A DNA stretch of 63,774 bases, the filler included, from Deltaproteobacteria bacterium (GTDB lineage Bacteria > Myxococcota > JACRCW01), in NCBI GenBank assembly GCA_016218805.1. It is 4 parts of 4 records of this genome, joined end to end, with 100 filler letters (N's around TTAATTAATTAA, not from the genome) between each part and the next. Parts side by side here need not be neighbours in the genome. Positions count along the whole stretch, not along the records: positions 1 to 21,444 come from JACRCW010000147.1; 3 more parts are not named here. The stretch is one strand, 5' to 3'. The stretch's first letter is position 1; every line of letters begins with the position of its first letter. Of the stretch, positions 5,401 through 23,695 are shown in pieces. The notes below the pieces were generated by a model. That model did not search any database and was not told where the DNA came from. It was given only the letters and a program-made list of their open reading frames with translations. The translations under genes and the position numbers were made by a program.

Positions 5401-5907
5401 GTGAGGACGCGGACATGGGCAACTCTGGTTGCCGCAACATTGCTGGCGGCGGGTGCCGCCTGGGCGGTGAAACCCGGGGGAACGCTGTTCGTCAAGGGCA
5501 AGGACGTGAAGGTTCTCCCCAAGGCGGACCTGGGTGCCACGCCCATGATGAAGTTGCAGAGCGGTGACGAGGTGGTCTGGAACGGCGCGGACGCCAAGAA
5601 CAAGCAGCTCCACAAGGTGAAAGCCAAGGGCAAGGACGGGTACATCCTCCAAGCAAACCTCACGCCCAACAAGCCCTCAGACGAAGTCCTGACCGGCGAC
5701 GGCAAGCCCACCTCCGCGCAGGCGTTTGCCAGTTCCGGTGCGGCCACCAAGGCGATGAGCGAGGCGGGTCTCAAGTACGCCTCCGAAAAGGGCGGCAAGG
5801 AGATTGCCGCGCAGGTCATCTACGTGGAGGAGCACTCCAAGAAAGCGGCGGATGCCGTGCCTGATCACGTCAAGAAGGCTGGCCTCACGCCGGGAGGTGG
5901 CAAGTGA
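5401..5907 (+). CDS. Secreted SH3-like domain protein
   Basis: Signal peptide ending AWA; SH3b-like [20 protein letters not shown] motif; lies between the CHASE2 cyclase and M48 genes, overlapping the latter. Confidence 0.6.
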
Positions 5908-7349
5908 TGCGCTCCAACCTGTCACGCCTGTTGGCCGGGGTGGCGCTTGCCGCCGCGGCCTGTTCCGGATCCAAGCTGTCCATCAAGGACCCTGCCAAGA
6001 TGGCCGCGGAGAGCGCGGCGCTGGCCAAGAAGCTGGCGGACGTGGCCAAAGAGGCGGAGGAGAAGGCCAAGCCGTGTGACAACCTTGAGACGCGCGGCAT
6101 TGTGTGGTCCGAAGAGCGCGCCATTGGCGGGTCCATTGCCATTGGCATGGTGCAGAAGGCCAAGGGCGCCATGTTTGTGGACAACCTGCCCAGCACCGAC
6201 CCGGATGCGCTCAAGAAGGACGTGGACGCCAAGAAAAAGGTGGAATTGCCGTCCAGCCCCAAGAATGACCTGGCGCTGGAAGTGGCCATCATCGGCCGCA
6301 ACCTCGCGTCGTACTCCGCGCGCCCGGAGATCGCGTGGACGTTTGGTGTGATCGACGATCCGTCGGTGAACGGGTACTCGGCGCCCGGCGGGTATGTGCT
6401 GGTGACGACGGGATTGCTGCGGCTGGTGGAGAACGAGGCGCAACTGGCCGGCGTCCTGGCCCACGAGATTGGTCACGTGGCCAACCGGCACGCGCTCAAG
6501 ACGTACGGAAAGATCAAGGCCATGCAGTGCAAGGTGGCCGTGCGCGGCGGCGTCTACCTGGAGCGCGGCGTCCTGGACCAGGCGCCGGCGGAGCTGAAGA
6601 AGGCGGCCGAATTCGGGAGTTTCTTCTCCAAGTCCGTGGAGGGTGACGGCGTGCTGGACCTGGACGGTGCGGGCGCCAGCGCCAAGCTGGTGGCGTACAT
6701 CACGGACGGATTCATTGACTTCTTTGTCAGCACCGGATTGGCCAAGCCTGACGAGCTGGACGCGGACAAGACCGCGTTTGAATTGATGACCTTTGCCGGA
6801 TACGACCCCGGCGAGCTGTCCAAGTTTGTCAACAAGATCCCCGACAGCGGCGGCGCCTTTGCCCACCACCCCAGCAACAAGGAGCGGACGGACGCCCTGA
6901 CAGCGGTCCGGGCGGATTACGCCGGTTTTGCGGATAACGGGAAGGTCCCGCCGCTTTCCGACGTGTTCAAGGTCCTGGCCGCCCCAACTCCCGCGGAGGC
7001 CCCGGCCGCGGCCGCACCCGGCGCGGCGGCCGCTCCCCCCGCGGGATGCCCGGCCAAGATTCCCGCGGGATTTGTGTGCATTGCGCAGAAACAAGGCGGC
7101 GTGGTGCTGGCCGGTCCCCACGCAGACCTCAGTGGTGCTGATCTCGCCGGCGCCAACCTGGCAGGCGCGGACCTTTCCGGCGCCAACCTCAGCGGCGTGG
7201 AACTCAAGGGCGCGGACCTGCGCGGCACCAACCTCAAGGGAGCCAACCTCTCCCTGGCCAACCTGGCGGGTGCCGTGTGGGGGAACACCACCTGCCCGGA
7301 CGGCACCGACAGCGACGACAACGGCGGCAGCTGCCAGGCCAATCCGTAA
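5904..7349 (+). CDS. M48-family zinc metalloprotease lipoprotein with C-terminal pentapeptide repeats
   Basis: Lipobox [42 protein letters not shown]-terminal A(D/N)L(S/A)G repeats. Confidence 0.85.
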
Positions 7350-15426: not shown

Positions 15427-16083
15427 TCAACGCCAGCGGACGTCCCAGCAACACGCGGCGTCACCCTGGTGCACGCACGCGGTGTGATCGACGGCCGTGG
15501 CCCGGCCCCCGCCATAAGACAGGGCCGCGTCCAGCCAGCCTGTGATGCCGTACGCGCACATGTAGCGCGGGAACACCGCGCCGGACAGCTCCACGCGTCC
15601 CTCCTCGTCGCCGGTCCTGGTGCCCCGCAGAGAGCCGCTCCTGAAATACAGCGAATAGGCCAGATTGGTGTTGCTCAACACCGTTGCGGGTGACGCGAAG
15701 AACAAGAGCATCTTGTAGATGGTGGACAGGTCATAGCGGCCCACGGTCTGCCCAAAGTGCAGCATGTGCTCCATGCGGCCCCGCATGGGCCCGGCAATGA
15801 TGGCGCAGTCCACGTCCATGAGCGGGCCAAAGCTGCACCATGTGCTGGGCAACGGCGGGTCCTCCAGGTACGCGCGCGCCTCCCCGCGCAGCTGCGCGCA
15901 CAACTCCGCCAGCTCGCCCAGGCCATACTGCTCCCGCACGTACCGCGCGCGTGACCGCACCAGGTTGCCTTTGACCCGCATCAGCCGGGCCCGCGCGATG
16001 GTTCGCCAATCACCAAGCACCGGGTGGGCTGCGGCGCGTGCGCCGTCCGCGCCGGTCCGGGCGCTGTTGACCTGTGTCTGCAT
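15427..16083 (-). CDS. DUF2378-like / V4R-type small-ligand-binding protein
   Basis: VKGNLV..YVREQYG..TW..; C-terminal CVHQGDAACCWDVRW; RBS GGGGAGAG before ATG 16083. Confidence 0.6.
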   Translation of the reverse strand: MQTQVNSARTGADGARAAAHPVLGDWRTIARARLMRVKGNLVRSRARYVREQYGLGELAELCAQLRGEARAYLEDPPLPSTWCSFGPLMDVDCAIIAGPMRGRMEHMLHFGQTVGRYDLSTIYKMLLFFASPATVLSNTNLAYSLYFRSGSLRGTRTGDEEGRVELSGAVFPRYMCAYGITGWLDAALSYGGGRATAVDHTACVHQGDAACCWDVRWR

Positions 16084-16380
16084 GCTCTCCCCCCGTCCCG
16101 CGTGCCGTGGGTCCGGCACACGGTCCGCGGAGGTAGCCAACGTGCGCTGGACCCGCAACGCGAAACCGCAGTCCGCTTGGCTGGCACGCGTAAACCCCGC
16201 GTATTGACCGCCGTCACGGCGTGGAGACGGGCTCCGCAACTGCAGGGCAGACCTCGCGGCAATGGGCCGGAATTCACGGCATTACGCGGAGCGCGGATCA
16301 GCCTTGCGGGCGCTCCGCCCGAAGAGGAGATTGCCCGGGCCTCCCGCAGCACCGGGCGGCGCAACGGGGCGGGAACAGAC

Positions 16381-16935
16381 ATGAGCGAACTGACGCTCCG
16401 GGTGACACCGGACTGGGACGTGGTGAGGGGATTCTGGCCGGTTTCCACGGGCTTCTTTGCCGGCCAGGGTCTGCAGGAGGAGACGGTCTACGCCCTGTCC
16501 ATGATTGCCCAGGAATTGCTGGAGAACGCGGTCAAATACGGCCATTACCCGGATGACGCGCATGGAATAGCGGTGAGCCTGCGGGTCTTGAAGAGTGAGG
16601 CCACCGTGGAGGTGAAGAGCCCGGCCGGTCCGGATGACGCACCGCTGCGCCGGCTGGATGACACCATTCAGTGGATTCGCGGGTTTCAGAGTCCGTTTGA
16701 GGCGTACATGGAACGGCTCAAGGCGGTGGCCATGAGCCCTCCCAGCGGGGGGGCCAGCGGCCTGGGGCTGGTGCGCATTGCCTACGAAGGCCAAGCGGTC
16801 CTGGATTTCTACATCAACCCGCAATACGAGCTGGCCGTTTCCGCCGTGCACCGTCTGCCGGATGGTTCGCCCGCGGGTATTCCGGCGGCAAAAGCAGACC
16901 ACCAACCGGGTGAGCTGGCAGTGAACCGTGCGTGA
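16381..16935 (+). CDS. HATPase_c Ser/Thr kinase, anti-sigma type (SiaB/Slr1658-like)
   Basis: N-box QELLENAVKYG, EAYMERL, G-box SGLGLVRI; no His phosphoacceptor domain. Confidence 0.75.
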   Translation: MSELTLRVTPDWDVVRGFWPVSTGFFAGQGLQEETVYALSMIAQELLENAVKYGHYPDDAHGIAVSLRVLKSEATVEVKSPAGPDDAPLRRLDDTIQWIRGFQSPFEAYMERLKAVAMSPPSGGASGLGLVRIAYEGQAVLDFYINPQYELAVSAVHRLPDGSPAGIPAAKADHQPGELAVNRA

Positions 16936-16970
16936 TGAGTGCCCAGAATCAGCAAGCCTGCGGGGGGACC

Positions 16971-17348
16971 ATGCATTCCAGCCACGTGTTCATTGAGAAT
17001 TCGCTGCGGATTGAGCAGGACGAGAACGACAGCGAGGTGCGCCTGACGTGGACCGGCCGGAGCACGGAGCGGGAGCCCGCCCGGTTCCTCACGCCCATCC
17101 TGGATGGGGCACTGCAGCGCAGCCGCGCGGAGGCGCGCCCCCTGGTCCTGGATTTCCGGTCCATTGAATACATGAATTCCTCCACGTTCACCCCGCTGGT
17201 GGTGGCGCTGGAGCAGGCGCGCAGTGAGGGCGGCAACGTGCGCCTGTTGTTCCGTTCCAACCTCAAGTGGCAGAACCTGAGCTTTTCGGCGCTGCGGATC
17301 TTTGAGACGCTCGACAAGCGCATTGAACTGTGCGGGGTGGATGGATGA
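16971..17348 (+). CDS. STAS-like partner-switch protein (SiaC/Slr1659-like)
   Basis: LTWTGRS..EP..F, LVLDFRSIEYMNSST phosphosite motif, KWQNLSF; about 125 aa; stop overlaps the next start (ATGA). Confidence 0.75.
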   Translation: MHSSHVFIENSLRIEQDENDSEVRLTWTGRSTEREPARFLTPILDGALQRSRAEARPLVLDFRSIEYMNSSTFTPLVVALEQARSEGGNVRLLFRSNLKWQNLSFSALRIFETLDKRIELCGVDG

Positions 17349-18733
17349 ACGCCGCGCCGTTGCCGCTGCCGGGCACGTTGTTTGGCCGGGACGGGCGCTT
17401 CACCGTCCAGCTGAAATTCGCCACCAACGCGTCCGTGTTTGCCAACTTCCCCACCGGCACGGCGCCGCCGGACCGCTCCGAGTTTGACGGCCTGGTGCTG
17501 GAGGTGGAGGACCGCGCCTACCAGCTGTCACGCTGCCGCCTGGAGGTGGAGGAGGCGCAGGTGGACCCGCGCCTGGTGTTCCTGGACGACGTGTACGATT
17601 TCAGCGCCTTGTTCCGGGAGCACCGCATGGTGGACCTGCGGCGCGTGTTCCACAACGTAGCGCTGGTCATTGCGCAGAAGGACCAGGTCAGCCCGCAATT
17701 CAGGGATTACACCGCCAACACCGTTTATGACCTGTCCGTCTACAAACGCTTCTTTGCGGACCAGGAGGCCATGCTGCGCAAGGAACCGGCCAGCGTGCGT
17801 GAGGCGGCACGGGGCGCACTGCTGCGCGCGCAGCGGACGCGGTTCTTTGACTTCATGGACCGCGGCCTGCTGGGCCTGCGCCAGGTCACCGCGTCCTTTG
17901 ACGACGAGGAGCACAAGCGCCACGGCTACTACTTCCGCCGCCACGTGTGGGAGTACATCCAGGGCGCGCCGTTCCTGGCGCGCACCAACCTCAAGCCGCG
18001 GGGCTACGCGGGTGATTCGCACATGATGGAGATGATCTACGAGGACGCGTTCAAGGGGAACTCGGTATTCAGCATGCTGCTGCACCGGCACCCGTTGGCG
18101 TCCGCCGCCGCGCGGGCGGTGCGCAACCGCCGGACCATGGTGCCGCTGGTGCTGCGGCGCGTGCAGCGGGAGTTCCAGCCGCTGCCACCGCGGGGCTTCC
18201 GGTTCCTGTCCGTGGCGTGCGGACCCGCCTTTGAGGTGTGTGACCTGCTGGCGGAGGAGCCGGAACCGGAGCACTTCCACTGCGCGCTGCTGGACCAGGA
18301 CACCGAAGCGCTGGCCACCGCGCGCGCGGGCATCCAGCGCGTCCAGCGCGCGCGCCGCCGGAAGTTCAGCGTGGCCTACGTCAACGAATCCGTGCGCACC
18401 ATGCTCAAGCGCGCCGACCAGGTGGACCGCCTGGGGCGCTTCCACTTTGTCTATTCCATGGGATTGTTTGACTACCTCACGCCGCCGGTGGCGCGCGCCG
18501 TGGCCAAGCGCCTGCTTGAACTGGTGGTTCCCGGCGGCACGCTGCTGATTGGCAACTATCACGTGGACAACCCCACGCGCCGGTACATGGAATACTGGAT
18601 GGACTGGACGCTGTACTACCGCACGGAGGCGGAACTGCAGGCGCTGCTGGAAGACGCCGAGGCTGCCTCCGCCGAGTTGTTCTTTGAGGACACCGGCTGC
18701 CAGATGTTCCTGCAGGTCCGCAAGCCTGGATGA
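17345..18733 (+). CDS. PhcB-like class I SAM-dependent methyltransferase (3-hydroxy fatty acid methyl ester synthase family)
   Basis: KPRGYAGD..M..IY, AVRNRR, SVACGPAFE, LDQD, VYSMGLFDYL, PGGTLLIGN, MEYWMDWTLYYRT; about 460 aa. Confidence 0.75.
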   Translation: MNAAPLPLPGTLFGRDGRFTVQLKFATNASVFANFPTGTAPPDRSEFDGLVLEVEDRAYQLSRCRLEVEEAQVDPRLVFLDDVYDFSALFREHRMVDLRRVFHNVALVIAQKDQVSPQFRDYTANTVYDLSVYKRFFADQEAMLRKEPASVREAARGALLRAQRTRFFDFMDRGLLGLRQVTASFDDEEHKRHGYYFRRHVWEYIQGAPFLARTNLKPRGYAGDSHMMEMIYEDAFKGNSVFSMLLHRHPLASAAARAVRNRRTMVPLVLRRVQREFQPLPPRGFRFLSVACGPAFEVCDLLAEEPEPEHFHCALLDQDTEALATARAGIQRVQRARRRKFSVAYVNESVRTMLKRADQVDRLGRFHFVYSMGLFDYLTPPVARAVAKRLLELVVPGGTLLIGNYHVDNPTRRYMEYWMDWTLYYRTEAELQALLEDAEAASAELFFEDTGCQMFLQVRKPG

Positions 18734-18743
18734 CGGGGAAGCC

Positions 18744-20189
18744 ATGCACGGGACGGTGGAAGCCATGCCAAACGCCCTGGTCACCGCAAGTGCGCGGCGT
18801 GACTCCAGTGACACGTTGGTGCTGCCGCCTTCCAGCCAGATGTTGTTTGACGCCTACCTGGCGCACATCATCCATGACTGGTCCCGCGTGGTGGCCATGC
18901 TGGGGTTCTGCCTGGTGCCCGTGTTTGGGCTGTTGGACAGCTTCATTGTCCCGCCCGGACTGCTGGATGAATTCCTGATGTACCGCGGCGGCGCCACCGC
19001 GGTGATCCTGGCGCAGTACGTGGTCATCCGGAACACGCCGCCGGGGCGGTGGTCACTGCTGCACGGGTACTTCTTTTCGATTGTCACCGGCGGGATGATC
19101 ACGCAGATGACGCGGGACCTGGGTGGGTTTGATTCCGCCTATTACGCGGGCCTCAACCTGGTCATGGTGGCGGTCAACATCTTCCTGCCATGGAGCGCCA
19201 TCCATTCTGCCGTCAATGGGCTCATTCTCATCTCCATGTACGTGGTGGTGAACGGGCTGTGGGGCGGGCCGTTCACGCCGGCGCTGCTGGTGAACAACCT
19301 GTATTTCCTGAGCGGCACGCTGGTCATTGCCGTGGCCATCAACCGCAGCCGGCACAAGCTCATTGCCAAGGAATTCCGCTTGCGCGCGGAGTTGCAGGAG
19401 ACCAACCATGAGCTGGATGCGTCGCGGCGGGACCTGCAGGCGGCGCGGGACGCGCTGTGGGGTGAGATGGAGGTTGCCAAGCACATCCAGACCGCGCTGC
19501 TGCCACGCAACACGCGCCTGGGACCGTTTGAGGTGGCCGGCGTCATGCACCCCGCGTCCGAGGTGGGCGGGGACCTGTATGACATCCTGGAGACGCCCGC
19601 GGGTCAGCGGTGGGTGGCCATTGGTGACGTGTCCGGCCACGGCGTGGAATCCGGGCTGGTGATGATGATGACGCAGAACTGCATCGCAGCGCTGGTGCAG
19701 GACGGGCGGGCGCGGCCGCCGTCGGACGTGTTTGTTTCCGCCAACGCCATCCTGCGGGAGAACCTCCGGCGCCTGCGCACCAACCTGTACGTCACGCTGA
19801 GCATCATGCGCCTGGACGCGGACGGCCTGTGGATGGCGGGCAAGCACCAGGACCTGCTGATCCTGCGCGCGCGCACCGGCGCGGTGGAGGCGGTGCCCAC
19901 GCGCGGCTGCTGGCTGGGCGTGGTGGAGGACCCGCGGCCGGCGGTGACGGACCAGTTTGTGCCGTGGGAGCCGGGGGACGTGGTGCTGCTGCACACGGAC
20001 GGCATCTCTGAAGCGCAGCGCGGAGGCGAGCTGTACGGCGACGACCGCCTTGCCGCCGCGCTCAAGGAGCACGGGAACCGGCCACCGGACGAGACATTGC
20101 GTTGCATGCTGGACGAAATCAATGAGTTTCAGCCGCACCAGGACGACGACCGCACGCTGGTTCTTGTCCGGTACCTCGCCTCCGGGTGA
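18744..20189 (+). CDS. Membrane-bound PP2C/SpoIIE phosphatase with multi-TM sensor domain (SiaA-like role)
   Basis: About 6 TM with SAYYAGLNL; coiled coil; AKHIQTALLP, VGGDLYD, IGDVSGHG, HTDGISE, DDDRT all intact; start 18744 or 18765. Confidence 0.9.
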   Translation: MHGTVEAMPNALVTASARRDSSDTLVLPPSSQMLFDAYLAHIIHDWSRVVAMLGFCLVPVFGLLDSFIVPPGLLDEFLMYRGGATAVILAQYVVIRNTPPGRWSLLHGYFFSIVTGGMITQMTRDLGGFDSAYYAGLNLVMVAVNIFLPWSAIHSAVNGLILISMYVVVNGLWGGPFTPALLVNNLYFLSGTLVIAVAINRSRHKLIAKEFRLRAELQETNHELDASRRDLQAARDALWGEMEVAKHIQTALLPRNTRLGPFEVAGVMHPASEVGGDLYDILETPAGQRWVAIGDVSGHGVESGLVMMMTQNCIAALVQDGRARPPSDVFVSANAILRENLRRLRTNLYVTLSIMRLDADGLWMAGKHQDLLILRARTGAVEAVPTRGCWLGVVEDPRPAVTDQFVPWEPGDVVLLHTDGISEAQRGGELYGDDRLAAALKEHGNRPPDETLRCMLDEINEFQPHQDDDRTLVLVRYLASG

Positions 20190-21214
20190 GGGCGTGGCGG
20201 CAGGGGGGGGTGATGCGCCTGCAAACTGGAACGCCTGTCAAGGTGGATGGCGAGTACTACCGGATGCTGCAGTTTCATGCGGATGCCTCCGCGCTGCCGC
20301 TGGCGGTGCCGGGCTTTGACGTGGTGGCCCACGCGGCGTTGGACGGCGCGCTGGAGTGCCTGGCGGAGGGCGGCGTGGACTGCGTGCTGGTGCCGTGCGC
20401 GCGCGCCGTTCCCGCCGGGACCGAACGCCTGCAGCAGTGGTGCGACGAACAGATGGTGCCCCTGGTGCTGGGATTGGACACGCGCGTGACGACGTCCGAG
20501 GACCCCGTGTTCCGCGTGGCGGCGGATGGGCTGGTGGACCTGCGCTGGCCGGGGCACCTGGTGGCGGCGGCGCTGCGGGCCGCCATCCAGCGCGTGCTGG
20601 TGGGCCGCAACCTGGTGGACGTGCAGCGCCGGGTGCTGGACGTGGCGCAGGGGACCGTGGATGCGCTGGAGCACCTGGCGTTCCGGGACGAACTCACGGG
20701 CCTGTACAACCTGCGGGGATTCCGGGACATCATGCGCAAGGAGCACGAACGGTGCGCCCGCTACCAGCGCTGCTATTCGCTGATGTTCCTGGACATGGAC
20801 AACCTCAAGCTCGTCAACACCTCGTTCGGGCATGCTGCGGGCAACCGGCTGCTCGCGGAATTTGGCCGCTTGCTGGCCAGCCACCTGCGCGCCTGCAACT
20901 ACGCGTTCCGCGTGGGGGGAGACGAGTTTGTGGTGCTGTTGGCAGAAACGCCCCCGGCGGTGACGCTGGGCGTGGCCCACCGCGTCCGGGACGACGTCTC
21001 GCGCATTGCCGTGGAAGACCACGGGGTGGTGCTCACGGCATCGGTGAGCATCGGGATTGCGTCGTACCCGGAACACGGCACCACGTTCCAGGACGTTGTG
21101 GCGCGGGCGGACCAGGCGCTGTACCAGGCCAAGGCGCTGGGCCGGAATCGCGTGCTTTCATTTGATGAGCTTCCGGGCGGCGCACCCGGCCTTCCCAGCC
21201 TTCCCGCGCATTGA
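20186..21214 (+). CDS. GGDEF dinucleotide cyclase with degenerate REC-like N-terminus (SiaD-like role)
   Basis: DELTGLYN, DMDNLK, GHAAGN, FRVGGDEF, ADQALYQAK..GRNRV; GTGA overlap with the phosphatase (alternative ATG 20213). Confidence 0.9.
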   Translation: MRAWRQGGVMRLQTGTPVKVDGEYYRMLQFHADASALPLAVPGFDVVAHAALDGALECLAEGGVDCVLVPCARAVPAGTERLQQWCDEQMVPLVLGLDTRVTTSEDPVFRVAADGLVDLRWPGHLVAAALRAAIQRVLVGRNLVDVQRRVLDVAQGTVDALEHLAFRDELTGLYNLRGFRDIMRKEHERCARYQRCYSLMFLDMDNLKLVNTSFGHAAGNRLLAEFGRLLASHLRACNYAFRVGGDEFVVLLAETPPAVTLGVAHRVRDDVSRIAVEDHGVVLTASVSIGIASYPEHGTTFQDVVARADQALYQAKALGRNRVLSFDELPGGAPGLPSLPAH

Positions 21215-21444: not shown

Positions 21445-21544
21445 NNNNNNNNNNNNNNNNNNNNNNNNNNNNNNNNNNNNNNNNNNNNTTAATTAATTAA
21501 NNNNNNNNNNNNNNNNNNNNNNNNNNNNNNNNNNNNNNNNNNNN
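21445..21544. other. Artificial contig spacer (N run + TTAATTAATTAA)
   Basis: 100-bp N spacer with a six-frame stop linker. Confidence 0.98.
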
Positions 21545-21994
21545 ACGCCGCCGGCTCGGCATCCCGTGCCAACAGGAGTGGACCCCCCAACCACGGGCCC
21601 GCTCCCAGCCTCCATTGGACACATCGCCGCGCCGCATTTCGATCCAGGCAAGCCCGGAGCCGACGGGGCCGCTAATCAAGTACGATCCGATCCTGAGCAG
21701 CGGAAGCCGTTATGGATGACGCGTTGTATTACCTGCGTTTCGCTAGCCACACCGAGCGGGGCGGCGACTCCGGCAGCCGAAGAGGCCACTCAACCGGTTC
21801 GGACGTCGTGCGCCCCATGGTGTCTCCCTCTGGCGGGAACGGGTGCCGGCTGGGCGGGTTGGCGTCGCACTGGAAAAGGCGTGTTTCACCCGGGACGCCG
21901 TGGTGACCCCGCGCGAAGCGTGCGTGACGTGCGATTGAACGCGTTTGGCGTGGCGTGTTGGACGCCCGCGGGGCACGGCGTAGGCTTGCGTTCA

Positions 21995-23695
21995 ATGATG
22001 CCCGGCCGAGAGGGGAGGCGACGCGTGGCGTGGAAGCGGGAAGGTGCGCGGGACGGGCCAAGGAGCGCCACCGCAACCATTGGAGTGATCTTCGCGGGGC
22101 TCGCGTGGTGCCTTTGCAGTTGTACGCACGGTGAAAGCGACGAGCCTGATGCCGGACCGCGCTACCCATATCCAAGCATTTCTGTGCATGGCGACGAATA
22201 CCCAGACCTGGTCACCACGGGAGTGATGCGCACCTGGGTGGCCGGCCTGACGCGCATCGACAGAATCGAGATGGACGGCGTGTCCTTCTCTTTGACCGGG
22301 CTAATGCCGGACCGCGACTTCATCGACGCATTCGCCTTGGACATCTGGCTGGAGAACCGTTTCCCGCCTGGGTATCACACGCTCCGTGCATTGGGCGACG
22401 GCGAGCTGACCCAGGTGCTGCCCATTCTGGACGCGGGGTTCCCCTACTGGGCGCACATGACCGCCGCATACAGGGGATTGCTCTATGGGGAGTGTCTCGG
22501 GTGGGTCTCCGTTGTTGACGGCGCCCGCCGGGTTTGCCTGGACCCCGATGGATTCAAGGTTGACCACTTTGTCCGAGACCCCACCGACCCCGTGGTGGCA
22601 ACCTGGACTCCAACGGCCGACGGGCTGGCGACCCGGCGGGCGTCCTACCCGGCAATTGCCATGAGTCGGCCAAATGCCGGAGCCGACGCCGTCATGGTCT
22701 TCTTCACAAGTGGTGCCGAAGAGGGGACCGCCGACATCTTCGCCGGCCACCCTGGCCAATGGTGGCCGGGCGAATCTGACCTCAGGCGTGTGGCCACGAT
22801 CCCGTTTGACCGTTGGGGTGGGACCGTCTGGCATGACGAGAATGAGGACGAGTACCTGATGGTTGTCGCGGGCGGGTGGGTCCTGGCCTACGCATGGGAT
22901 GCCGCCGCAATGAGCCTTGCTCCTGACTACGTGGTCGTGGAGGGCAGCGGCAAGGTGATCTACTCAACGCACGGTGTGGACTTGGACGCTGATGGGAGGG
23001 ACGAGCTGGTTCAGGTTCACGAGGCCGGCATGGAGATCCTTCGGGGCGATCCGGTGAACGGGTGGACCCTGGTTGCCGAGGTGATTGGCGCAGGCGGTTG
23101 CAGCGGCACCACCCGACAGCAGCGGCCTTCCACCGCGGACCTGGACGGCGACGGCATGCTGGACGTGGTGGCCACGCGGGCGGGCGGGGGTGTTGATGTC
23201 ATCTACACCAATCCGGACGGCACATTTGACACACGTCCGAACCTGCTGGATCCGGGTTGTGACACCGGACAGTTGGCCGCATTGAGCTACGCCGCGGCGG
23301 GATTGCTGGACAAGGAGCGGCGGCCCTACGTGGTGCTGGCCCACGGGCACCAGGAGCACGGACTCCTGTTCCGCATGACCGGCCGCGGGACCTACGTGCG
23401 TGAGGACTGGCGCGCGGCCACGGTCCGCCTGTCCACGTGGTTGTCCCACAACGACCTGTACGACGTGGACGGCGATGGATGCGCGGATCTTGTTCAAGGG
23501 GGCAACCGCGGCTCGGTCTACTTGTGGAGGCGCCCCGCCTACGAAGCCGAGGACGGCCTGTACGGCCCGCGGCCATTGCGCGGTATTTCCGTAGACGAAC
23601 TTCTTCAACGTCCAGCGTGGCGTGCGGCTGCGAAGAAACGGCTGACGCGGGACAGCGTGGTGAACACGCGCGAGGCGTGCACCGTGTGCCCATAG
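21995..23695 (+). CDS. FG-GAP/VCBS repeat lipoprotein
   Basis: Lipobox-like LCSC; DLDADGRDEL, DLDGDGMLDV, DVDGDGCADL motifs; start uncertain. Confidence 0.7.
   Translation: MMPGREGRRRVAWKREGARDGPRSATATIGVIFAGLAWCLCSCTHGESDEPDAGPRYPYPSISVHGDEYPDLVTTGVMRTWVAGLTRIDRIEMDGVSFSLTGLMPDRDFIDAFALDIWLENRFPPGYHTLRALGDGELTQVLPILDAGFPYWAHMTAAYRGLLYGECLGWVSVVDGARRVCLDPDGFKVDHFVRDPTDPVVATWTPTADGLATRRASYPAIAMSRPNAGADAVMVFFTSGAEEGTADIFAGHPGQWWPGESDLRRVATIPFDRWGGTVWHDENEDEYLMVVAGGWVLAYAWDAAAMSLAPDYVVVEGSGKVIYSTHGVDLDADGRDELVQVHEAGMEILRGDPVNGWTLVAEVIGAGGCSGTTRQQRPSTADLDGDGMLDVVATRAGGGVDVIYTNPDGTFDTRPNLLDPGCDTGQLAALSYAAAGLLDKERRPYVVLAHGHQEHGLLFRMTGRGTYVREDWRAATVRLSTWLSHNDLYDVDGDGCADLVQGGNRGSVYLWRRPAYEAEDGLYGPRPLRGISVDELLQRPAWRAAAKKRLTRDSVVNTREACTVCP

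Follow-up and report, generated by a model that had tools for sequence, protein, structure and literature searches.

Positions 16381-21214 of a 63,774-nucleotide stretch of DNA from a Myxococcota genome (GenBank assembly GCA_016218805.1; the whole stretch is called the window here) are filled by five plus-strand genes, which encode a GHKL kinase-like protein, a STAS-fold phosphoprotein, a class I S-adenosylmethionine (SAM) methyltransferase, a membrane PP2C phosphatase and a GGDEF diguanylate cyclase. The methyltransferase resembles the signal synthase PhcB of Ralstonia in its catalytic half, and its gene lies directly upstream, with a 10-nt gap, of the phosphatase gene, the product of which has a membrane domain homologous in sequence to the sensor domain of the kinase PhcS. 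On these comparisons, we see about an even chance that the operon is a self-contained Phc-like autocrine or quorum circuit that transmits through a Ser/Thr partner switch, the product of the methyltransferase being sensed by the phosphatase.

A PhcS-type sensor domain on a PP2C phosphatase

The C-terminal domain of the phosphatase belongs to the SpoIIE/PP2C family (Pfam PF07228, E 1e-33, profile positions 3-191 of 192), and the protein has no HisKA/HATPase transmitter. DVSGHG, TDG and DDRT, which we take to be the metal-binding aspartate motifs of PP2C, are present, and approximately five to six hydrophobic segments precede the catalytic domain. BLASTP aligned this membrane region with that of a PhcS-like kinase of Paraburkholderia graminis (E 7e-5), and the two proteins have in common an S-x-(Y/F)-Y-A-G-L-x-L stretch. 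When a profile of 23 phosphatases from related gene cassettes (see below) was compared with this single kinase using hhalign, the result was 96.2 % probability (E 2.3e-9). The phosphatase membrane-domain profile aligned with 27 PhcS-family kinases at 97.6 % probability and E 3.3e-12 over 177 columns. Some homologues of the P. graminis kinase carry the name PhcS, those of Ralstonia pseudosolanacearum, R. syzygii and Cupriavidus taiwanensis among them, and the set of 27 kinases contains named PhcS proteins of the two Ralstonia species. The two families share six invariant positions (phosphatase/PhcS numbering): D65/D39, R81/R54, M122/M95, G128/G101, S131/S104 and G136/G109.

Because membrane proteins can inflate profile scores, two specificity controls were run with hidden Markov models (HMMs). 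An HMM of the phosphatase membrane domain, searched against the 34,077 six-frame open reading frames (ORFs) of the genome together with 120 PhcS-family proteins, returned 121 matches at E<=10, which comprise every one of the PhcS-family proteins and, from the genome, the phosphatase alone. The reverse HMM, built from the PhcS membrane region and searched against the same 34,077 ORFs plus the cassette phosphatases of 24 loci and two nucleotide cyclases, returned only cassette phosphatases (the window phosphatase at E 4.8e-6) and the two cyclases. By sequence, the membrane domain of the phosphatase is homologous to the PhcS sensor domain.

The methyltransferase and its relation to PhcB

The P. 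graminis kinase is encoded in a plasmid operon with the order methyltransferase (468 aa), histidine kinase with a weak MASE8 match, response regulator, response regulator. We took this operon as phc-like because its order is that of phcBSRQ in Ralstonia, as described in PMC7694676. Homologues of the P. graminis methyltransferase, at 64-92 % identity, occur in Paraburkholderia, Cupriavidus, Massilia and Janthinobacterium. Residues 186-455 of the window methyltransferase align with the P. graminis enzyme at 34 % identity (BLASTP E 2e-43). Its catalytic half is 31-34 % identical to the PhcB-type clade of Burkholderiales, and hhalign against that clade gave E 3.3e-41, covering the C-terminal 282 columns only. 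The likeness to PhcB claimed in the original prediction thus holds for the catalytic half but not over the full length of the protein: judged by sequence, the methyltransferase is PhcB-like in its catalytic half and is not a PhcB orthologue.

Pfam recognizes Methyltransf_25 in the methyltransferase (E 5e-4); PDB sequence and NCBIfam searches with the protein gave nothing useful. It has more than 1045 homologues, the best 120 at 43-58 % identity, and many of them bear the Joint Genome Institute name 'extracellular factor (EF) 3-hydroxypalmitic acid methyl ester biosynthesis protein'. An AlphaFold (AF2) model built from 41 sequences (predicted local distance difference test (pLDDT) score 91.8) has three parts: an N-terminal beta-barrel, a helical middle domain and a C-terminal Rossmann fold. 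Full-length Foldseek searches returned only generic class I methyltransferases (best 3ocj, E 1.8e-11). In the helical domain, only the last third (from approximately residue 177-186) aligns with the PhcB-type clade.

The barrel was also modeled alone (pLDDT 85.3), and its top PDB matches in Foldseek were mostly PilZ domains, those of BcsA, VCA0042, Alg44, YcgR, MotI and MapZ (TMq 0.45-0.61, with weak E values of 0.01-0.4). PilZ domains bind cyclic di-GMP (c-di-GMP) through RxxxR and D/NxSxxG motifs. The Pfam PilZ model (PF07238) matched none of 41 methyltransferase homologues at E<=1, and an alignment of 23 N-domains shows conservation of neither motif; canonical c-di-GMP binding by this domain was rejected on these grounds. 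We read the barrel, as modeled, as a PilZ-like fold that probably lacks the canonical mode of c-di-GMP binding. Sister clusters in the ESM Atlas have another domain in the place of the barrel, either a PilZ domain proper (in 10-49 % of members) or a cyclic nucleotide (cNMP)-binding domain (98 %), and a Myxococcota paralogue (locus L046) has a genuine Pfam PilZ match at E 1.1e-5.

A four-gene core conserved across phyla

We examined 27 related loci in reference genomes, 24 of which lie on contigs that reach upstream of the methyltransferase gene. Kinase-like and STAS genes precede the methyltransferase gene in all 24, and a membrane PP2C gene follows it in 24 of the 27 loci, four of these being cut by a contig end. 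With the kinase-like/STAS/methyltransferase order kept in 24/24 assessable loci and the membrane PP2C next in 24/27, the gene arrangement is not due to chance. Host labels are Myxococcota, Thermodesulfobacteriota, Fidelibacterota, Calditrichota and Spirochaetota (Leptospiraceae), so that the unit conserved in at least five phyla consists of four genes (kinase-like, STAS, methyltransferase and membrane phosphatase). The distance from the STAS stop codon to the methyltransferase start is an overlap or a gap of 3-14 nt. Fusions of the two genes, suggested by an ORF script for L015 and L025, were ruled out on translation by a stop codon between them.

In related genomes, the four-gene core is joined to other signaling enzymes: one locus has an EAL-HDOD gene upstream, and five have a PAS-kinase-receiver gene directly downstream. 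The Archangium locus (L013) has the kinase-like, STAS and methyltransferase genes and neither a phosphatase gene nor a sensor-cyclase fusion after them, though its contig runs on for 6 kb. A second, divergent STAS paralogue lies after or near the phosphatase gene at L011:5704-6090 and L026:8779-9162. STAS paralogues are also found in L004, L005 and L006 (opposite strand), and L004 has a second kinase-like gene. These additional paralogues hint at branched partner switching.

Methyltransferase-sensor pairs and their transmitters

A survey of 201 Myxococcota genomes located the sensor domain at 40 places (28 genomes) and the methyltransferase family at 68 (53 genomes). No fewer than 28 of the 40 sensor places, one of them in an unpublished genome (G195), are preceded on their own strand by a methyltransferase match at most 150 bp away, a lower bound given that the methyltransferase search scored eight candidates per genome. 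The genome studied here has one methyltransferase copy and one sensor-domain gene.

Transmitter types were read in 12 survey places. The sensor is fused to HisKA-HATPase-receiver-HATPase in six loci (L045, L046, L048, L049, L050 and L056); each of the six also has a methyltransferase paralogue, and in L045 and L056 at least a gene for a receiver-HATPase protein follows, giving phcBSR-like operons in Myxococcota. PP2C alone is also among the transmitters. An 870-residue protein at L047:3395-6004 (genome G052, contig C21), encoded beside a methyltransferase paralogue, has the architecture sensor-HisKA-HATPase-receiver-PP2C and could be an intermediate in evolution between the kinase and phosphatase forms. 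Two of the 12 sensor genes read have no methyltransferase gene beside them, encoding a membrane PP2C in L053 and a PhcS-like kinase in L054. Directly after a methyltransferase gene, at L003:2949-4292 and L027:443-1783, a class III adenylate/guanylate cyclase takes the place of the PP2C behind the sensor domain (sensor HMM E 1e-13 and 1.7e-15, respectively); these are the two cyclases of the reverse control. L003 keeps the kinase-like and STAS genes, with no PP2C gene on its 4.7-kb contig. L027 lies on a 2.2-kb contig of a metagenome-assembled genome (MAG) labeled Hodarchaeota, an archaeon, and mis-binning is possible.

Several further observations concern the methyltransferase family. G052, a 10-Mb Myxococcota genome, has eight sensor places and five or more methyltransferase paralogues, which suggests several parallel circuits in one cell. 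Methyltransferase matches beside sensor kinases at G186:C1:4297970-4299103 and G180:C43:7909-9162 have one in-frame TGA each, which may reflect a frameshift, a pseudogene or a sequencing error. Rhizobium accounts for 125 of 143 plasmid records with a methyltransferase match. In Rhizobium, a shorter member of the broad methyltransferase family (L032:3728-4765) is divergent beside an annotated GGDEF-domain phosphodiesterase gene; in the Sinorhizobium locus (L057, methyltransferase region 5647-6741), a long unannotated ORF occupies the same divergent position. The Sinorhizobium plasmid match inspected is a lone methyltransferase in another gene context.

The partner-switch proteins and the cyclase

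Domain identities in the original prediction (kinase, STAS with YMNSST, methyltransferase, membrane PP2C and GGDEF) held in Pfam and NCBIfam searches. The kinase-like protein matches HATPase_c_2 (Pfam, E 1e-4) and the slr1658 superfamily (NF047703, E 7.7e-12, 45.0 bits against a cut-off of 100), the slr1658 models being its only NCBIfam matches, and it has no match among PDB sequences. Its homologues keep ELLENAVKYG and SGLGL, which we assume to be the N-box and a G2-like box; the DxGxG motif, presumably the G1 box, is absent from the aligned family. From its sequence, the protein is a distant slr1658-superfamily relative and the presumed kinase of the STAS protein.

The STAS protein matches STAS in Pfam (E 5e-4), TIGR00377 (E 1.1e-5) and the slr1659 superfamily (E 8.6e-5, 22.8 bits, again under a 100-bit cut-off). 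A profile of its family reaches E 9e-5 against the anti-sigma antagonist TM1442 and E 0.08 against SiaC structures. Y67, N69, S70 and S71 of its YMNSST motif are invariant in 19/19 aligned homologues.

The cyclase matches GGDEF (E 3.2e-40) and TIGR00254 (E 1.9e-46). Its GGDEF motif, at residue 244, is intact; no RxxD occurs five residues upstream, where the inhibitory site usually lies. Neither the N-terminal ~160 residues of this cyclase nor the N-terminal regions of cassette-linked GGDEF proteins match a Pfam family at E<=1. With the catalytic motifs of phosphatase and cyclase intact and N-S-S of the STAS protein invariant, these components look competent from their sequences.

The proposed circuit and its alternatives

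In the circuit that we propose, the methyltransferase would make a hydrophobic methyl ester (methyl 3-hydroxy-myristate or -palmitate, by analogy with PhcB). Homology and gene linkage suggest that this product would be bound by the PhcS-type domain and would alter phosphatase activity. As in other switches of these families, the phosphatase and the kinase-like protein would together determine whether the conserved STAS serine is phosphorylated. The STAS protein, depending on its state, would then control the GGDEF cyclase, its likely target by analogy with SiaC-SiaD, BgrV-BgrR and HsbA-HsbD, and hence c-di-GMP. Either sign of regulation is compatible with the sequences. According to PMC7694676, PhcB synthesizes the signal, PhcS senses it and the two have co-evolved. 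Since the methyltransferase-sensor pair stays while the transmitter changes, a synthase and its receptor are the simplest account of the pair. A role of the phosphatase as receptor of the methyltransferase product, proposed in the original prediction, is supported by the PhcS-domain homology and by the recurrence of the pair.

A number of observations weigh against this circuit. On the sensor side, the Pfam model MASE8 (PF20968, gathering threshold 26.2 bits) does not match the window phosphatase at E<=10 and matches one of seven tested phosphatase homologues (E 0.041, 14.5 bits). In the same scan, the PhcS-like kinase itself scored only 19.6 bits; all 120 of the PhcS-family matches listed carry PF20968 in precomputed annotation. 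On the synthase side, the N-terminal ~180 residues of the methyltransferase are unaligned with the PhcB-type clade. The methyltransferase had been expected inside that clade, but in a tree of 56 rows over the shared part it falls outside the single clade formed by the 27 PhcB-type rows (Shimodaira-Hasegawa-like approximate likelihood ratio test (SH-aLRT) 98), a clade set by operon context and source names, with no Ralstonia PhcB sequence among the rows. The window group and the PhcB-type group stand together against Pantoea and Rhizobium methyltransferases in the same tree with support of 99, the three outgroup rows having very long branches and the root being unsure. With its N-terminal part unaligned and its place outside the clade, the enzyme may differ from PhcB in substrate and product. 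Pairing in the survey is frequent and not obligate: 12 of the 40 sensor places (one of them at a contig start) have no adjacent methyltransferase match, and 40 of the 68 methyltransferase matches have no sensor alongside.

Other points concern the switch and its output. Kinase activity of the kinase-like protein is uncertain because the DxGxG box is absent. A co-oriented GGDEF gene adjoins the core in only 5 of the 27 related loci, downstream in L005 and upstream in L011, L022, L023 and L026, and two further loci have one within 3 kb. The five-gene cassette that had been predicted to be conserved is thus reduced to its four-gene core; the GGDEF gene is an optional add-on, found on either side, and the c-di-GMP output is local. 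Control of the cyclase by the STAS protein would follow solely by analogy with other systems. Finally, the contig ends 230 bp after the GGDEF gene, and further operon genes may be missing.

The main rival explanation makes the methyltransferase the output of the switch. Docking of the STAS or kinase-like protein on its PilZ-like or helical N-terminal half would toggle the enzyme, which would modify a lipid or metabolite, and the membrane domain would sense a membrane or lipid cue made elsewhere. The methyltransferase is the sole non-switch enzyme in the four-gene core, and a sensor-switch-output unit would be the most economical arrangement. The close spacing of the STAS and methyltransferase genes points the same way, as does the N-terminal half of the enzyme: it is cassette-specific, and its replacement by true PilZ or cNMP-binding domains in sister groups makes it look like a regulatory module. 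Against this stands the sensor domain, which trails methyltransferase paralogues with any transmitter, even in operons without STAS and kinase-like genes; the known pair with such an arrangement is a synthase and its receptor (PMC7694676). We consider this rival unlikely as a replacement for the synthase-receptor reading, with which it can coexist as positive feedback.

A second rival accepts the circuit and removes the quorum sensing. The product would stay in the membrane of the producing cell and report fatty-acid or envelope status, making the operon a cell-autonomous homeostat. In its favor, the whole of the sensor domain is embedded in the membrane and its loops are short, and no result here bears on product release. 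The Ralstonia signals of the homologous system, on the other hand, are secreted and sensed extracellularly according to PMC7694676, and we find a purely cell-autonomous role improbable.

It is very unlikely that the methyltransferase is instead a CheR-like protein carboxyl methyltransferase that methylates the membrane sensor or the STAS protein and so gives adaptation: 27/41 family members match the CheR SAM-binding domain weakly (E<=1, best 2.2e-5), plasmid homologue H63 is annotated CheR, and a PilZ protein that binds CheR1 is known (5xly and 5y4r are among the barrel fold matches), but generic methyltransferase models all score similarly weakly, the full-length fold matches are small-molecule methyltransferases, and the nearest characterized relatives are described, in PMC7694676, as small-molecule ester synthases.

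Relation to known signaling systems

The synthase-receptor reading places the operon closest to the Phc system of Ralstonia. In both, a methyltransferase gene lies directly upstream of a gene that starts with the same membrane sensor domain, and both the catalytic halves of the methyltransferases and the sensor domains are homologous. The transmitter in the operon is PP2C with a kinase-like/STAS switch, in contrast to the histidine kinase and response regulators of Phc. The operon methyltransferase differs from the PhcB-type clade in position and in its N-terminal half, and the operon has no PhcA-type regulator.

The operon had also been described as SiaABCD-like. In its logic, it is: as in the Pseudomonas aeruginosa operon, there are a membrane PP2C, a kinase, a small phosphoprotein and a GGDEF cyclase, and the Sia phosphoprotein activates its cyclase according to 10.1101/674879 and PMC8457831. 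Membership does not follow, since all Sia models score below their cut-offs. The SiaA model matches the C-terminal part of the phosphatase only, at 65.7 bits against 700; the SiaD model gives 148.8 bits for the cyclase against 290; the SiaC Pfam model gives 18.8 bits for the STAS protein against 24.5 (E 1.3e-3); and no SiaB model in NCBIfam matches the kinase-like protein. Sia, moreover, has no methyltransferase and a different sensor domain.

Partner switches in which a STAS-type protein controls a diguanylate cyclase are also described for BgrU/BgrW/BgrV-BgrR of Sinorhizobium meliloti and HsbR/HsbA-HsbD of P. aeruginosa (10.1101/674879; PMC13438883). This likeness does not extend to the input, as no PhcS-type sensor appears in the accessible text of their descriptions. 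The best named matches for the kinase-like and STAS proteins are the NCBIfam superfamily models for Slr1658 and Slr1659 of Synechocystis sp. PCC 6803, with scores far under the cut-offs as given above. Disruption of slr1658 impaired recovery from iron limitation (Zer et al. 2018, as cited in PMC7555055).

Partner switches driving cyclases are known, and Phc signaling is known; we found no published work joining them. In the literature as far as it was accessible, we likewise found no publication on PhcB/PhcS-like pairs outside Burkholderiales and no earlier description of the combination, in agreement with the original prediction. More broadly, Phc-type signaling could rest on a synthase-receptor pair of old origin and modular build, present in at least five phyla, the receptor of which has been plugged into histidine kinases, cyclases and PP2C. 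The operon would then hold the first autoinducer receptor that signals via a Ser/Thr partner switch, here to c-di-GMP, and undescribed diffusible signals would be made in uncultured Myxococcota and others. We offer this wider view tentatively, as possible rather than probable.

Were the methyltransferase product the ligand of the phosphatase, Phc-type signaling would reach far beyond the plant-pathogenic Burkholderiales. Natural swaps of the receptor between kinase, phosphatase and cyclase transmitters would be at hand for the study of how one sensor drives various outputs, and one member of the orphan membrane PP2C phosphatase class would have a testable ligand. Among the hundreds of metagenomic proteins labeled '3-hydroxypalmitic acid methyl ester biosynthesis protein' are at least two separate clades that differ in their N-terminal halves.

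Operon layout and genomic setting

An ORF reading of the window places the five co-oriented genes where they had been predicted, and the two overlaps and the close spacing of the original prediction are seen in the sequence (Table 1). The STAS stop and methyltransferase start overlap in ATGA (17345-17348), and the phosphatase stop and GGDEF start overlap in GTGA (20186-20189). The kinase-like gene stops at 16933-16935, and candidate STAS starts lie at 16932, 16935 and 16971, the last (ATG) being favored by homologue comparison. The methyltransferase stop codon occupies 18731-18733.

Table 1. Genes and domains of the operon, in window coordinates.
Feature	Positions	Strand	Size and basis
GHKL kinase-like protein	16381..16935	+	184 aa; HATPase_c_2 and slr1658 superfamily
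STAS-fold phosphoprotein	16971..17348	+	125 aa from ATG 16971; ORF open from GTG 16932
Class I SAM methyltransferase, PhcB-like, presumed signal synthase	17345..18733	+	462 aa; Methyltransf_25
PilZ-like beta-barrel of the methyltransferase, N-terminal, residues 8-79	17366..17581	+	Seven strands in model
Helical middle domain of the methyltransferase, residues 86-275	17600..18169	+	AF2 model
Rossmann-fold SAM-binding domain of the methyltransferase, residues 285-459	18197..18721	+	Model secondary structure; Foldseek
Membrane sensor PP2C phosphatase	18744..20189	+	481 aa from ATG 18744; SpoIIE
PhcS-type (MASE8-like) membrane sensor domain, residues ~45-236	18876..19451	+	hhalign to PhcS family
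PP2C/SpoIIE catalytic domain	19602..20174	+	Pfam PF07228
GGDEF diguanylate cyclase, local output	20186..21214	+	342 aa; GGDEF
GGDEF catalytic domain, residues 165-322	20678..21151	+	Pfam PF00990, full profile length

N spacers separate the several MAG contigs that make up the window. Contig C121 (window 1-21444), which carries the operon, belongs to a 6.4-Mb genome of 92 % completeness. Positions 21445-21544 are an N spacer with the linker TTAATTAATTAA, and contig C125 follows (21545-44965); because it is on this other contig, an FG-GAP protein ORF at 21566-23695 is not a neighbor of the operon. A simple scan for promoters and terminators found sites in no higher number than in shuffled sequence. 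Upstream of the operon, a divergent 270-residue ORF (15427-16239, minus strand) matches no Pfam or NCBIfam family, with a weak V4R match at E 0.18. No RNA run is among the sequencing runs listed as containing the operon; the operon stretch is present in four groundwater metagenome DNA runs from a single study, one of which is possibly the source of the genome.

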